Positions 1,108 to 5,663 of a stretch of 5,663 bases of DNA are shown here, piece after piece (position 1 is the first letter of the stretch; each line of letters opens with the position of its first letter). The notes beneath the pieces are model-generated. The model did not search any database, was not told where the DNA came from, and saw only the letters and a list, made by a program, of their open reading frames with translations. The stretch lies in IMG/VR virus record IMGVR_UViG_2541047172_000012. One strand, 5' to 3'. The translations under genes and the position numbers were made by a program. The DNA comes from a virus (Duplodnaviria; Heunggongvirae; Uroviricota; Caudoviricetes).

Positions 1108-1824
<717 letters not shown>

Positions 1825-2198
1825 AGAGGATAGATGGAGTTTAATGGCCATGAGTATCAAGCGGTCAAAAAGAAGTTCATCTATTCATTGAAAGCATAAG
1901 GCCATCTGAGTATATCCGTAATGATCTGGATATTGTCTATAACATCAATGACCGGACGATAGATATCGGTGAGCAGCGTCCTGTATGGCAGGGTGAGGCA
2001 GGTGAAAAAACGTCCTGCCATCAACAAGAATCAAGTGCATCCGCTCTCTGGACAGATGGAAAATTTATTGGATGCAAAAAGATATGAAATAACACCTGTA
2101 TAGCACGGAGCTTTCTCTGACCGATGCACTTGAAGTTGTTAGGGCTGACCCAGCCTGCTGTTTCTTTAGGTAAGAGAAAAGAGATTTAGGAGATGAAA

Positions 2199-2225
2199 GG
2201 TCGCAGAGGTGCGGCCTTTTTTATT
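2199..2225 (+). terminator. Intrinsic terminator closing the non-coding region downstream of cI
   Basis: 7-bp stem GGTCGCA/TGCGGCC (one G-U), GAGG tetraloop, followed by TTTTTTATT. Confidence 0.6.
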
Positions 2226-2234
2226 GAGAGTGGA

Positions 2235-2267
2235 TCTTGAACGGAAATTCTCAAGACTTGAGTCTTG
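2235..2267. promoter_or_regulatory. Overlapping inverted repeats upstream of the 173-aa gene (operator-like)
   Basis: TCTTGA-N10-TCAAGA (2235-2256) and CAAGAC-TTGA-GTCTTG (2252-2267) share an arm. A GCATGC palindrome follows at 2266-2271. Confidence 0.35.
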
Positions 2268-2293
2268 CATGCAAATCAATTCCTGGATAAACT
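2265..2293 (+). promoter_or_regulatory. Candidate sigma70 promoter for the 173-aa gene
   Basis: TTGCAT (2265-2270), 17-bp spacer, TAAACT (2288-2293). It sits just downstream of a terminator and about 30 bp upstream of a purine-rich RBS (AGAGAGAGAG) and the ATG at 2326. Confidence 0.3.
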
Positions 2294-2325
2294 CGATCTG
2301 AGTCAATAACTTAGAGAGAGAGCAA

Positions 2326-2847
2326 ATGGCAAAGTCAAACGTTAGCGTGCAGGCATTCAAGGACTTCCTTGAAGAGCTTATGTCGCTGAACATAATGAAG
2401 GAGGCCACCGCTCGAAATTTAAAAAACTCATCCGCTCGCCTCTTAACGGTAGTCCAAGAAGAGGAAATGGGTGATGTTACTCAGCTTGATGTGAATGAGC
2501 TTGCCGAGCGATACATCAACGCAACTGAGCCGAAGCCTAGCGACAGCAGCATTACTGCATATAAAAGCCGCATGGAAAGTGCAATCAAAAAGTTTGTAGC
2601 TTTCCAGTCTGGTGAAGAAATCCCATACACTCCGATTGACAAAGAATCCAGTGAGGAAAAAGATTTGACTGGCGAACCAACAAAAGTCGAAGGCAAGGCT
2701 AATGCACTTCATACCTATGATCTTCCAGTAGTTCTTCGACCTGAATCAGGGGTTACAGTAACGATTAAAGGCATTCCTAACGATATCACAAACGAAGAAG
2801 CCGAACGCATCTCTTCAATTCTGAAGGTTTACGTTCGGCCTCAATAA
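2326..2847 (+). CDS. Hypothetical acidic protein (173 aa); cargo gene at the position of lambda rexA/rexB
   Basis: Clean 173-codon ORF with a purine-rich RBS, MAKSNVSVQAFKDFLEELMSLNIMKEATARNLKNSSARLLTVVQEEEMGDVTQLDVNELAERY... No resemblance to RexA/RexB or any family I recognise; E/D-rich, no obvious HTH or hydrophobic segment. Opposite-strand ORFs overlapping it are shorter and lack signals. Confidence 0.7.
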   Translation: MAKSNVSVQAFKDFLEELMSLNIMKEATARNLKNSSARLLTVVQEEEMGDVTQLDVNELAERYINATEPKPSDSSITAYKSRMESAIKKFVAFQSGEEIPYTPIDKESSEEKDLTGEPTKVEGKANALHTYDLPVVLRPESGVTVTIKGIPNDITNEEAERISSILKVYVRPQ

Positions 2848-3020
2848 TGCAAAAGCATTCAGCACAATGTCCAACTCCCCAGTCCGACATTGATGCTGTT
2901 TAACCAGAGCCTCCAAAAGGAGCCCTTGTTAAGGTACACAATATTTGCGATGTAACCTTAGCGCGTCTGGTACATTTTTTCAAGCGGTTGTAGGGCTGCC
3001 GCCAATATGAGAAAACACAG

Positions 3021-3143
3021 ATGTCTACATACAATTTGAATGACCAATTCGATCGAGAAGTTCATGTGAATGCCTATGAACGGATAAGGCATGGAAATCT
3101 TGAACATGTGTGTGAGCATTATCGCTCAAGGCCACACCGCTAA
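3021..3143 (+). CDS. Candidate small ORF (40 aa, His/Cys-rich), or the body of a terminator-capped small RNA
   Basis: ATG at 3021 to TAA at 3141-3143 encodes MSTYNLNDQFDREVHVNAYERIRHGNLEHVCEHYRSRPHR, ending 7 nt before a strong intrinsic terminator. No convincing Shine-Dalgarno; a possible promoter (TTCAAG-18-CAATAT, 2979-3008) would make it near-leaderless. Confidence 0.25.
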   Translation: MSTYNLNDQFDREVHVNAYERIRHGNLEHVCEHYRSRPHR

Positions 3144-3150
3144 TCATCAA

Positions 3151-3179
3151 CCCGGCCTCCATGCCGGGTTTTCTTTTCC
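3151..3179 (+). terminator. Strong intrinsic terminator, positionally analogous to lambda tIMM
   Basis: Stem CCCGGC (3151-3156) / GCCGGG (3163-3168), 6-nt loop, then TTTTCTTTTCC. Confidence 0.75.
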
Positions 3180-3357
3180 TCTCGCCCAAAAAAACACATA
3201 ACCAATTGTATTTATTGGAAAATAAATAGATACAACTCACTAAACAACGCAATTCTGATCTCTCCTTACATCGCCGAGGCAATACACCCACGCTAAAAAA
3301 CAATACTATTAAATACAAAGCGTTGTAAAAAAACGCCCCGTTTTAGAACAAATTGTA

Positions 3358-3386
3358 TTGACCAAGTGAAGTACATATCGTACTAT
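3358..3386 (+). promoter_or_regulatory. PL-like promoter upstream of nutL and N
   Basis: TTGACC (3358-3363), 17-bp spacer, TACTAT (3381-3386), set in an AT-rich region about 190 bp upstream of N. Flanked by short inverted repeats (TACAAAGCGTTGTA 3314-3327, ACAAATTGT 3348-3356, AGTAC-N5-GTACT 3370-3384) but no lambda-type 17-mer operators. Confidence 0.5.
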
Positions 3387-3432
3387 TTAACCATCAGCAG
3401 GACGCTGGAAGCCAAATGGAACAGACTGGCAG

Positions 3433-3477
3433 GCTCTTTAAACAACGTCGACTCTCGACTACGTGGCTGAAAAGCCA
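3433..3477 (+). promoter_or_regulatory. nutL-like site: boxA (3433-3445) and boxB hairpin (3464-3477)
   Basis: GCTCTTTAAACAA resembles the boxA consensus (CGCTCTTTAACAA). Downstream, TGGCT-GAAA-AGCCA forms a 5-bp stem with a GAAA loop. Both lie in the leader between the promoter and N. Confidence 0.5.
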
Positions 3478-3575
3478 GATCACCCAACCACATAAGCTGT
3501 GGGATGCAATGCCGAAGCAACCGTCTCAGGAGGAGCTTCGAGATTGCATCGCCAAAGTTTATTCGGGAGGAATCT

Positions 3576-3848
3576 ATGTCCAGAAAAACAGAATTTAAAG
3601 GCACCGCAGCTTCTCGCCGTAGAGCTCGTCGCGCAAACCTGCAAAGTCAGGAGGCGATTAGCTCCGACAAACTACACAGGCCAACCCCATCACGAGTGGT
3701 CTTACAATGCAAACGCAAACCAGCAATGAGAGCAGAAGTAATAACACTGACAACGTTGACCAGAAAATATGAAGGCTCAACTTGTCTTCCAAATGTAGCT
3801 CTTTACGCGGCAGGCTACCGTAAATCCAAACAACTGACAGCAAGATGA
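3576..3848 (+). CDS. N: Antitermination protein N, P22 gene-24-like rather than lambda-like (90 aa)
   Basis: Start chosen at ATG 3576 with strong RBS GGGAGG (3565-3570); the track ORF begins at an upstream Met (3504) with no RBS. It has an N-terminal arginine-rich motif (TAASRRRARRANLQ) and a C-terminus CLPNVALYAAGYRKSKQLTAR that closely resembles the P22 N C-terminus as I recall it (LLPGVALYAAGHRKSKQITAR). Confidence 0.75.
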   Translation: MSRKTEFKGTAASRRRARRANLQSQEAISSDKLHRPTPSRVVLQCKRKPAMRAEVITLTTLTRKYEGSTCLPNVALYAAGYRKSKQLTAR

Positions 3849-3898
3849 CTTGTGTTGGTCGCCAGAAAATGAAATTAGGCAGCAAACCACTTATTTGA
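3845..3898 (+). pseudogene. Relic of a lambda/21-type N C-terminus in the +1 frame, overlapping the N stop codon
   Basis: Frame open from 3824; ATG 3845 to TGA 3898 encodes MTCVGRQKMKLGSKPLI, resembling the C-terminal residues of lambda N (ITCSGRQKIKGKSIPLI) and phage 21 N (VTCVGRQKIKLGSKPLI), both from memory. Confidence 0.45.
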
Positions 3899-3906
3899 GG
3901 TGATAT

Positions 3907-4158
3907 ATGGAATTTCATGAAAGTGCGATTTGTGATTTTCGCGCTAACGCAAATTCAGTAAAACCACAGCCAATTGCAGTTCTTTTTAAAACAATGGGTG
4001 CGTGGGCTGTTTTATGCTTCGCCGCTGACGACACTGACGCAAGAATGGCAATAGGACAAGAGATGGAGATGGACCCGACAAACGATGAATTCATAATTTA
4101 TGGCGCTCCATCTAATTACTTACTTGATACCTGCAACATTTACAACAAGGCTGCCTGA
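3907..4158 (+). CDS. Hypothetical small protein (83 aa), first gene after N in the leftward early operon
   Basis: ATG 3907 preceded by RBS GAGGTGA (3898-3904); MEFHESAICDFRANANSVKPQPIAVLFKTMGAWAVLCFAADDTDARMAIGQEMEMDPTNDEFIIYGAPSNYLLDTCNIYNKAA. It sits where lambda has ral or small orfs; I do not recognise the sequence. Confidence 0.65.
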   Translation: MEFHESAICDFRANANSVKPQPIAVLFKTMGAWAVLCFAADDTDARMAIGQEMEMDPTNDEFIIYGAPSNYLLDTCNIYNKAA

Positions 4159-4204
4159 TGGTGGCCTTTATTTTTGGCATAAACAACAGAATAAACACAG
4201 CACT

Positions 4205-4232
4205 GTGTATTCATTCCAACGAGTGAATACAC
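4205..4232. repeat. Perfect 9-bp inverted repeat with 10-bp spacer in an intergenic region
   Basis: GTGTATTCA (4205-4213) ... TGAATACAC (4224-4232). No adjacent T-tract on either strand, so it is not a typical intrinsic terminator. Confidence 0.5.
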
Positions 4233-4294
4233 GGAGCAATGTCGCTCGTAACTAAACAGGAGCCGACTTGTTCTGATTATTGGAAATCTTCTTT

Positions 4295-4320
4295 GCCCTC
4301 CAATGTGAGGGCGATTTTTT
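4295..4320 (+). terminator. Intrinsic terminator upstream of ea10
   Basis: Stem GCCCTC (4295-4300) / GAGGGC (4307-4312), 6-nt loop, then GATTTTTT. Confidence 0.65.
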
Positions 4321-4340
4321 ATCTGTGAGGATATGAACAG

Positions 4341-4709
4341 ATGTCAAACATCAAAAAATACATCATTGATTACGACTGGAAAGCATCAATAGAAATTGAA
4401 ATCGACCATGACGTAATGACAGAGGAAAAACTTCACCAGATTAATAATTTCTGGTCAGACTCTGAATACCGACTCAATAAACACGGCTCTTTATTAAATG
4501 CTGTATTAATCATGCTGGCGCAACATGCTCTGCTTATAGCAATTTCAAGCGACTTAAATGCATATGGTGTTGTGTGTGAGTTCGACTGGAATGATGGAAA
4601 TGGTCAGGAAGGATGGCCTTCAATGGATGGTAGCGAAGGAATAAGAATTACCGATATCGATACATCAGGAATATTTGATTCAGATGATATGACTATCAAG
4701 GCCGCCTGA
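4341..4709 (+). CDS. ea10: Ea10 protein (122 aa)
   Basis: MSNIKKYIIDYDWKASIEIEIDHDVMTEEKLHQINNFWSDSEYRLNKHGS... matches lambda Ea10 as I recall it, in the correct position upstream of cIII. Confidence 0.85.
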   Translation: MSNIKKYIIDYDWKASIEIEIDHDVMTEEKLHQINNFWSDSEYRLNKHGSLLNAVLIMLAQHALLIAISSDLNAYGVVCEFDWNDGNGQEGWPSMDGSEGIRITDIDTSGIFDSDDMTIKAA

Positions 4710-4732
4710 GCGCGGCGTTACCGCATACCAAT

Positions 4733-4756
4733 AACGCTTCACTCGAGGCGTTTTTC
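4733..4756 (+). terminator. Terminator-like hairpin between ea10 and cIII
   Basis: Stem AACGCTTC / GAGGCGTT (with one G-U pair) around an ACTC loop, followed by TTTTT. It may be a partial terminator or a structure affecting cIII translation. Confidence 0.4.
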
Positions 4757-4781
4757 GTTATGTATAAATAAGGAGCACACC

Positions 4782-4946
4782 ATGCAATATGCCATTGCAG
4801 GGTGGCCTGTTGCTGGCTGCCCTTCCGAATCTTTACTTGAACGAATCACCCGTAAATTACGTGACGGATGGAAACGCCTTATCGACATACTTAATCAGCC
4901 AGGAGTCCCAAAAAATGGATCAAACACTTATGGCTATCCAGACTAA
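4782..4946 (+). CDS. cIII: CIII, inhibitor of FtsH that stabilises CII (54 aa)
   Basis: RBS AGGAG (4771-4775); [54 protein letters not shown] matches lambda CIII. Below the track's length threshold, so it was found by manual translation. Confidence 0.93.
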   Translation: MQYAIAGWPVAGCPSESLLERITRKLRDGWKRLIDILNQPGVPKNGSNTYGYPD

Positions 4947-5058
4947 ATTCACTATCGCCACTTTTATTGGCGATGAAAAGATGTTTCGTGAGGCCGTCGA
5001 CGCTTATAAAAAATGGATATTAATGCTGAAACTGAGATCAAGCAAAAGCATTCACTAA
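4915..5058 (+). CDS. kil: Kil, host-killing and FtsZ-inhibiting protein (47 aa)
   Basis: Internal Met of track ORF 4789..5058: [47 protein letters not shown], with RBS AGGAG (4901-4905). It overlaps the cIII 3' end and the gam 5' end as in lambda. Confidence 0.9.
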
Positions 5059-5429
5059 CCCCCTTTCCTGTTTTCCTAATCAGCCTGGCATTTCGCGGGC
5101 GATATTTTCACAGCTATTTCAGGAGTTCAGCCATGAACGCTTATTACATTCAGGATCGTCTTGAGGCTCAGAGCTGGACGCGTCACTACCAGCAGATCGC
5201 CCGTGAAGAGAAAGAGGCAGAACTGGCAGACGACATGGGAAAAGGTCTGCCCCAGCACCTGTTTGAATCACTCTGCATCGATCATTTGCAACGCCACGGG
5301 GCCAGCAAAAAAGCCATTACCCGTGCGTTTGATGACGATGTTGAGTTTCAGGAGCGCATGGCAGAACACATCCGGTACATGGTTGAAACCATTGCTCACC
5401 ACCAGGTTGATATTGATTCAGAGGTATAA
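5013..5429 (+). CDS. gam: Gam, inhibitor of host RecBCD nuclease (138-aa long form; short form starts at 5133)
   Basis: [55 protein letters not shown]... matches lambda Gam. The internal start at 5133 (MNAYYIQ) has RBS AGGAG at 5121-5125. Confidence 0.93.
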
Positions 5430-5434
5430 AGCGG

Positions 5435-5663
5435 ATGAGTACAGCACTCGCAACGCTGGCAGGGAAGCTGGCTGAACGTGTCGGCATGGATTCTGTCGAC
5501 CCACAGGAACTGATCACCACTCTTCGCCAGACGGCATTTAAAGGTGATGCCAGCGATGCGCAGTTCATCGCATTGTTGATCGTCGCCAACCAGTACGGCC
5601 TTAATCCGTGGACGAAAGAAATTTACGCCTTCCCTGATAAGCAGAACGGCATCGTTCCGGTGG
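5435..5663 (+). CDS. bet: Bet (Red-beta) single-strand annealing protein, N-terminal 76 codons; continues past the window end
   Basis: ATG 5435 translates to MSTALATLAGKLAERVGMDSVDPQELITTLRQTAFKGDASDAQFIALLIVANQYGLNPWTKEIYAFPDKQNGIVPV, matching lambda Bet. Not in the ORF track because no stop falls within the window. Confidence 0.95.
   Translation, partial: MSTALATLAGKLAERVGMDSVDPQELITTLRQTAFKGDASDAQFIALLIVANQYGLNPWTKEIYAFPDKQNGIVPV

Follow-up and report, generated by a model that had tools for sequence, protein, structure and literature searches.

Bases 3846–3898 of the window, i.e. of the whole stretch of 5,663 nucleotides analysed here, are very probably a non-coding relic, namely what is left, at the 3′ end, of an N gene of the phage 21 type; it lies at a mosaic recombination joint behind the antiterminator gene N, as far as this can be judged from the nucleotide sequence. 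In a preceding sequence-only reading of this DNA a recombination scar had been proposed, a P22-type N having taken the place of a lambda/21-type N except for roughly its last 50 bp. The proposal is supported by the switch of the closest relatives at 3845/3846, by the existence of both parental arrangements in extant phages and by the nucleotide identity of the relic with in-frame N ends.

The early-left (pL) operon of the lambdoid prophage runs in the direction of the plus strand of the window, with a promoter-like site at 3358–3386; the coordinates of the other features are collected in Table 1. The N protein starts with MSRKTEFKGTAASRRRARR and ends with ...CLPNVALYAAGYRKSKQLTAR. Its arginine-rich N-terminus is its own, its C-terminal end is of the HK97/H-19B/P22 type, and upon translation the reading frame closes with ...ALYAAGYRKSKQLTAR followed by the stop codon. 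The profile PF25694 (N_peptide) matched N with E = 3.4e-32 and 111.3 bits (cut-off 27.9), residues 1–90 being aligned to positions 5–100 of the 100 profile positions. The match is therefore full-length and above the gathering score, and it ends at the last profile position, i.e. at ...TAR. For comparison, a fusion of N with the downstream tail was scored with the same profile, resulting in 110.5 bits and a match that was not extended by the tail. N is annotated in the Stx phages that are identical to the window in this region.

Several further observations concern the surroundings of N. In the AP005153 annotation the start of N was placed at an upstream ATG (3504), and the Pfam match together with the Shine-Dalgarno sequence favours 3576. 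Between pL and N a probable nutL site was observed (3432–3478), consisting of a boxA-like element and a boxB-like hairpin; a 60-aa ORF at 3416–3598, which is annotated in some records, overlies this candidate and is probably spurious. Where lambda has rexA/rexB, between cI and pL, a 173-aa ORF (2326–2847) was found that is listed as hypothetical in the Stx phage records and whose only Pfam matches, to integrase SAM-like domains, are sub-threshold.

Table 1. Features around the end of N in the window and N ends of the phages used for comparison. Position 3790 is the start of the blastn query and no measured module boundary.
Feature	Position	Strand	Sequence or basis
boxA-like element, part of probable nutL	3432-3445		GGCTCTTTAAACAA
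boxB-like hairpin, part of probable nutL	3464-3477		TGGCT-GAAA-AGCCA
N, antiterminator	3576..3848	+	90 aa plus TGA; translation, PF25694 match
Left flank of the joint (3′ portion of the P22/HK97-type C-terminal module)	3790..3845	+	blastn, alignment
TAA closing the -1 frame upstream	3821..3823	+	translation
Proposed recombination joint AGA/TGA	3843..3848	+	direct comparison of the window, phage 21, HK97, HK620, SE1 and mEp213
Probable relic, final 17 codons and stop of an N gene of the phage 21 type	3846..3898	+	52/53 nt identity to phage 21 N
Shine-Dalgarno sequence of the next gene	3897..3904	+	GAGGTGAT; read from the sequence
Downstream gene, 83 aa	3907..4158	+	MEFHESAICDFR...; ORF list; hypothetical in PA4 and Stx1 phage
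Terminator-like hairpins	4147-4178; 4293-4324		
N end, window			...CAA CTG ACA GCA AGA TGA CTTGTGTTGGTCGCCAG...
N end, HK97			...GCA AGG TGA CTTGTG...
N end, HK620			...CAA CTG ACG GCG AGG TAA, then unrelated sequence
N end, SE1			...CAA ATA ACA GCG AGG TAA, then unrelated sequence
N end, phage 21			...ATG GGT GTG ACT TGT GTT GGT CGC CAG AAA ATT AAA TTA GGC AGC AAA CCA CTT ATT TGA GGTGATATATGG

The frame that overlaps the end of N reads IQTTDSKMTCVGRQKMKLGSKPLI between two stop codons over 3821–3898. It is open from 3824, contains an ATG at 3845 and ends with a stop codon at 3896–3898, and its last part (3845–3898) encodes MTCVGRQKMKLGSKPLI followed by this stop and overlaps the TGA of N (3846–3848). 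The peptide, its ATG, the overlap with the TGA of N and the range 3824–3898 given in the earlier reading were thus confirmed by translation. The frame, which had been assigned as +1 relative to N, has to be corrected: since the ATG at 3845 lies one base upstream of the TGA at 3846, the tail frame is −1 (equivalently +2). Owing to the upstream TAA of this frame, any change of frame would be confined to 3824–3845. The ATG itself exists because the last Arg codon of N is AGA; in HK97-type copies, the AGG at this position gives GTG. No CDS covers the relic in any of the eight records inspected, and no Shine-Dalgarno sequence was found by reading the sequence upstream of 3845 (AACTGACAGCAAG), i.e. 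the peptide has no ribosome-binding site of its own.

In order to place the segment among N genes, the 3′ ends of which the sequence-only reading had proposed for alignment, 3790–3906 was used as a blastn query against 50,697 phage records. Phage 21 (OL657228) matched exclusively over 3846–3906 with 98.4% identity (E = 3e-21), and the matches of DE3, CUS-3, Gally and others were likewise restricted to 3846–3906. Over 3846–3898, lambda N is identical at 31/53 nt, whereas the value for phage 21 N is the one given in Table 1; at the peptide level, 15 of 17 residues are shared with phage 21 N and 11 of 17 with lambda N. The commonest in-frame 21-type allele in IMG/VR, which ends with VTCVGRQKMKLGSKPLI, agrees with the relic peptide at 16/17 residues. 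The relic is specifically 21-type in sequence, and lambda is only a protein-level cousin, so that of the likeness to lambda and phage 21 N ends noted before, the part referring to phage 21 holds at the nucleotide level and the part referring to lambda at the protein level only. The 3′ end of phage 21 N (positions 33641–33940 of OL657228) resembles the window in the last 17 codons, in the GAGGTGATATATG leader, in the Shine-Dalgarno sequence and in the ATG that comes next. It differs in that phage 21 reads the segment in frame as the C-terminus of its N, whereas in the window it follows the N stop in the −1 frame and belongs to no annotated gene. Residues 62–99 of phage 21 N align to chain N of 6GOV; the tail segment accordingly belongs to the RNAP-binding C-terminus of the in-frame N proteins, and the N of the window has no need for it.

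On the other side of 3845/3846, where the closest relatives change abruptly in the blastn analysis, HK620 and HK630 (87% each), the P22-like phage SE1 (80%) and several lambda-like phages match only 3790–3844/48. Both parental arrangements are extant: HK620, SE1 and mEp213 end their N with ...KSKQ(L/I)TAR plus TAA without an adjacent tail, and phage 21 carries the tail in frame. Direct comparison of the N ends (Table 1) reveals that the stop codon TGA of N in the window derives from the out-of-frame G-TGA-CT of the 21-type N (GGT GTG ACT), and that this TGA occupies exactly the position of the TAA in the P22-type parents. The compared sequences point to at most 2–3 nt (GT) of microhomology shared at the crossover. 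An N with an HK97/H-19B/P22-type C-terminal module would thereby have been joined to the DNA of a phage whose N was of the 21 type. The crossover would have fallen 17 codons before the end of this 21-type N, and the joint is out of frame by one base. The left parent would have contributed N through its last Arg codon, and the right parent everything from the G-TGA-CT of GTG ACT onwards. As only 2–3 nt are common at the crossover, we infer an illegitimate or microhomology event. The relic peptide is presumably not produced. Since the TGA from the 21-type gene stands at the parental TAA position, the length of N is unchanged and the protein lacks nothing for its function, and the joint presumably survived because N was left intact.

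The region 3560–3910 is 100% identical to VT2-Sakai, YYZ-2008, 1717, 2851, PA4 and many other Stx phages, and the identical joint is present in HK97 and in the 933W-type phage Min27. It was found in at least 120 IMG/VR contigs and, counting contiguous matches to at least 80% of 3790–3906, in 634 of 5426 complete E. coli genomes. Among the GTDB species representatives, E. albertii was the only hit apart from two probable contaminant contigs, so that this search points to Escherichia and is otherwise uninformative. HK97, the H-19B/933W-type phages (Min27) and the Sakai-type Stx phages share the same joint (...GCA AGR TGA CTTGTG...) and the same relic, whereas their N genes differ from one another in the N-terminal and middle parts (127-aa against 90-aa N). 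The HK97-type copies read AGG-TGA, and their relic starts with GTG, compared to ATG in the window.

The window as a whole was found to be chimeric. Positions 1414–5663 are 99.5% identical to Sakai-type Stx phages and 1–1413 are lambda-type, with the joint inside cI (1111–1824). The lambda-type part comprises cII, cro, oR and the N-terminal half of cI, and in oR (1037–1100) lambda OR1 and OR3 are perfect and OR2 has one mismatch. The window is not covered to 80% or more by any phage record or any complete genome of E. coli. A lambda-type operator was not found near pL (about 3300–3400), and a repressor with a lambda DNA-binding domain is therefore not expected to control the pL of the window.

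Remnants of the same N end occur in other contexts as well, in four nested lengths with one common 3′ end: approximately 100 nt behind nun, 53 nt in the window, approximately 38 nt in contig L038 and approximately 30 nt in mEp213-type phages. In mEp213 a 225-bp gene lies between the TAA of N and the relic of about 30 nt. L038 exhibits a second kind of joint, in which a P22-type N end with TAA is followed by 13 unrelated nt and then by CCAGAAAATG.... In the nun contigs (HK022-type: L218, L222, L248, L214, L228, L239, L246) the relic of about 100 nt, ending with ..YYRKPRSEMGVTCSGRQKQRGKSIPAYYD and a stop codon, follows the nun stop and a terminator-like hairpin. In analogy to the window, the HK022-type relic is a lambda/21-type N 3′ end behind the replacing gene and is anchored on the downstream ribosome-binding site; unlike in the window, the replacing gene is nun, the relic is longer and has another tail allele, and a terminator-like hairpin lies in between. 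Nested relics on one 3′ end that holds the Shine-Dalgarno sequence of the next gene are the pattern expected if the replacements come from the left, in which case only those joints that retain the downstream ribosome-binding site would survive. Another arrangement was observed in L265, whose N combines the P22 arginine-rich N-terminus (MTVITYGKSTFAGNAKTRRHERRRK...) with an in-frame lambda/21-type C-terminus (..ERKQNRIYY..QKQRGKSIPAYYD) and an unrelated middle patch of 13 aa; this hybrid implies that the C-terminal modules of N are interchangeable.

The segment forms a uniform island between mosaic flanks. IMG/VR was scanned with its last 26 nt and the upstream context was then classified (n = 125), yielding approximately 70 in-frame 21-type N genes, approximately 45 out-of-frame copies as in the window and approximately 9 shorter relics preceded by unrelated genes (mEp213-type). 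The tail shows an equally low nucleotide diversity (pi) in both contexts, 0.007 in the relic copies and 0.013 in the in-frame copies, in comparison to 0.07 to 0.56 in the flanks. To the left lie two types of N C-terminal ends as well as nun and others. To the right, at least nine unrelated genes begin at the ATG after GAGGTGA(T/G)AT, the common ones behind both N types, so the modules to its left and to its right reassort independently. The Shine-Dalgarno sequence overlaps the relic stop codon, precedes the ATG at 3907 and is present in every relic form as well as in phage 21. Even the shortest relics (mEp213-type) keep the 3′ portion of the segment, through GAGGTGA(T/G)ATATG. The 83-aa gene of the window is one of these unrelated downstream genes, and no Pfam family was matched for it. 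In 21-type phages the commonest gene after the segment is a 28-codon acidic ORF, MEEEFEEFEEHPQDVMEQYQDYPYDYDY, with its ATG behind the shared Shine-Dalgarno sequence (about 762–848 in L003, i.e. phage 21); it is not annotated in the phage 21 record.

The 53 nt plus GAGGTGATAT constitute the intercistronic leader of the next gene, bearing its Shine-Dalgarno sequence. Because the segment is identical in phages with an in-frame 21-type N, it would act also as a homology patch of about 60 bp, via which the N alleles upstream of it and the variable early-left genes downstream may keep reassorting by homologous recombination. Such exchange would account for the very low diversity and the apparently conserved ORF, and ongoing homologous exchange rather than selection probably keeps the segment uniform.

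This explanation has to be set against the intactness of the relic ORF, which is preserved in all but one of approximately 124 out-of-frame copies among the matches listed; 57 of these encode MTCVGRQKMKLGSKPLI and 41 encode VTCVGRQKMKLGSKPLI. Moreover, the segment is less polymorphic than the neighbouring synonymous sites of N, and a few relic copies with very different nucleotide sequences still give N-like tails (..QKQRGKSIPAYYD, ..QKTKGKSIALI and ..LLYEG). Intactness and low polymorphism alone could suggest constraint; we consider them explained by exchange with in-frame copies plus recent spread. The IMG/VR scan revealed that the diverged relic tails are nucleotide-identical to sequences with which ordinary in-frame N genes end. 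Among 93 copies of the tail ..QKQRGKSIPAYYD there are approximately 80 in-frame N genes, approximately 10 copies behind nun or other non-N sequence and 3 out-of-frame relics, and the tail ..QKTKGKSIALI was found 11 times, 9 times in in-frame N and twice in the out-of-frame relic context. Purifying selection on the relic peptide was rejected, as the variant tails are exact copies of in-frame N ends. A 51-nt haplotype also present in in-frame N genes is carried by 115/122 relic copies among the matches listed, which suggests that the relic is continually refreshed by crossovers within the common GTGACTTGTGTTGGTCGCCAGAA stretch and that most relic copies are intact because they were exchanged with in-frame genes. 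The changes private to relic copies (one synonymous, four non-synonymous and one 10-nt insertion, versus about 8:8 in the in-frame copies) are too few for a test; they are suggestive of relaxed constraint. Decay is tolerated in some copies, namely in L187, where the 10-nt insertion (TGTAGTGGTC) within the relic breaks the tail frame, and in L038 and the mEp213-type copies, which are 5′-truncated.

With respect to a possible use of the overlapping frame, a programmed −1 frameshift near the end of N would add the lambda/21-type tail to a fraction of the protein and thereby produce two isoforms. From 3824 onwards the tail frame has no stop until beyond the end of N, the homologous residues of in-frame N are the RNAP-binding C-terminus in the 6GOV comparison, and a rare AGA codon directly precedes the stop. 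We nevertheless regard such a shift as extremely improbable. Frameshift sites of the dnaX type (−1) consist of A AAA AAG plus a hairpin and those of the prfB type (+1) of CUU UGA C plus an upstream Shine-Dalgarno sequence; the sole likeness of the window to them is an alternative frame that is open across a stop codon, whereas slippery motif, stimulator and conservation across N homologues are lacking. The N frame was free of X XXY YYZ heptamers throughout its length, and 3800–3850 of homopolymers of four or more; the latter range includes 3840–3848, near which a slippery sequence was to be looked for according to the sequence-only reading. The context of the candidate Lys codon varies (TCC AAA in the window, TCA AAA in other copies), an SD-like sequence is absent upstream within 3800–3845, and the predicted fold of 3815–3925 is no better than that of shuffled sequences (MFE −18.7 kcal/mol versus a mean of −18.4, z = −0.09). 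The +1 shift originally considered is impossible on arithmetic, the tail frame being −1. Furthermore, the arrangement is not conserved, as HK620, SE1 and mEp213 have the same N C-terminal end without the adjacent tail, the tail frame is broken in L187, and natural variants in which the P22-type end continues in frame into the tail, sought with spacers of 0, 1, 3 or 4 nt, gave zero matches in IMG/VR. The N of H-19B, a 127-aa ORF product with the same C-terminal end, is functional as such: activity was seen in vivo and also with the protein in purified in vitro assays. The final 7 aa of H-19B N are redundant, and the last 14 aa of lambda N, the counterpart of the relic tail, were reported to be dispensable (PMC3526286). 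The same frame might instead be used for a separate 17-aa micro-protein that is made by termination-reinitiation at ATGA/GTGA, an overlap that permits this process in other operons, and that might supply the RNAP-contacting tail in trans. The start codon does overlap the N stop in nearly all copies (57 with ATG and 41 with GTG for the commonest peptide among the matches listed), and approximately 123 of 124 listed copies are intact. The ATG or GTG is, however, an automatic by-product of an AGR Arg codon followed by TGA, and exchange with in-frame N suffices to explain both the intactness of the ORF and its variants. With no Shine-Dalgarno sequence upstream of 3845, no annotated CDS at this position in the eight records, truncated relics (mEp213-type, L038) that lack the start of the peptide, and private changes that are mostly non-synonymous or disruptive, albeit in numbers too small for a test, we give the micro-protein very little chance. 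Hardly to be expected, too, is that a few ribosomes reinitiate at ATGA/GTGA or shift to −1 at the rare AGA, by which Sakai/HK97-type phages would make some ancestral N tail, either fused or as the free 17-aa peptide; if true, a low level of this ancestral RNAP-entering tail could tune the processivity of antitermination.

A role of the nucleotide sequence itself was considered as well, i.e. that the island of about 60 nt is under selection for a cis-acting function beyond the Shine-Dalgarno sequence, either as an exchange linker or as a processing or stability element of the early-left transcript. Its near identity between mosaic flanks in both contexts and the retention of the same 3′ end in four relic lengths, the nun relic among them, are in line with this, and lambdoid phages are recognised to exchange modules by way of short conserved flanks (PMC2327257). 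Yet lambda-type, ..AYYD-type and ..SIALI-type tails fill the same position with 30–40% nucleotide divergence, which argues that no single sequence is required. Neither significant RNA structure (3815–3925) nor a promoter-like or terminator-like site was found in the segment, the shortest relics retain only the part adjacent to the ribosome-binding site, and phage modules that were exchanged recently typically show little diversity within an allele. Consequently, a cis-acting role of this kind appears unlikely.

The relic is thus read as a gene fragment at a lambdoid mosaic joint, which is a well-known kind of object, and as ordinary, if tidy, mosaicism. Lambdoid mosaic joints and short conserved boundary sequences were reportedly treated by Juhala et al. 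2000 and Clark et al. 2001. The window resembles such joints in the abrupt switch of relatives, in the independent flanking modules and in the position at a gene boundary, by which function is spared on both sides. Nothing essential sets it apart from them, except that its joint, being out of frame, neatly puts a stop codon back where the original one stood. As summarised in PMC2327257, lambdoid mosaicism arises from illegitimate recombination filtered by selection and from exchange through short shared flanks. A published description of this N-end relic was not found in the full-text literature searched, which included the epsilon34 paper; the papers on HK97 and H-19B may differ in this respect.

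For annotation and for the search for frameshifts the relic is a caution, as an out-of-frame joint alone can yield an intact and seemingly conserved ORF that resembles a functional tail and that then stays fresh through exchange with in-frame copies. No new biological question is opened by it. As a worked case, it illustrates clearly that lambdoid phages exchange portions of one small regulatory gene: N reassorts its nut-binding, NusA-binding and RNAP-binding segments separately, and the joint that survived preserved both the stop codon of N and the ribosome-binding site of the next gene.
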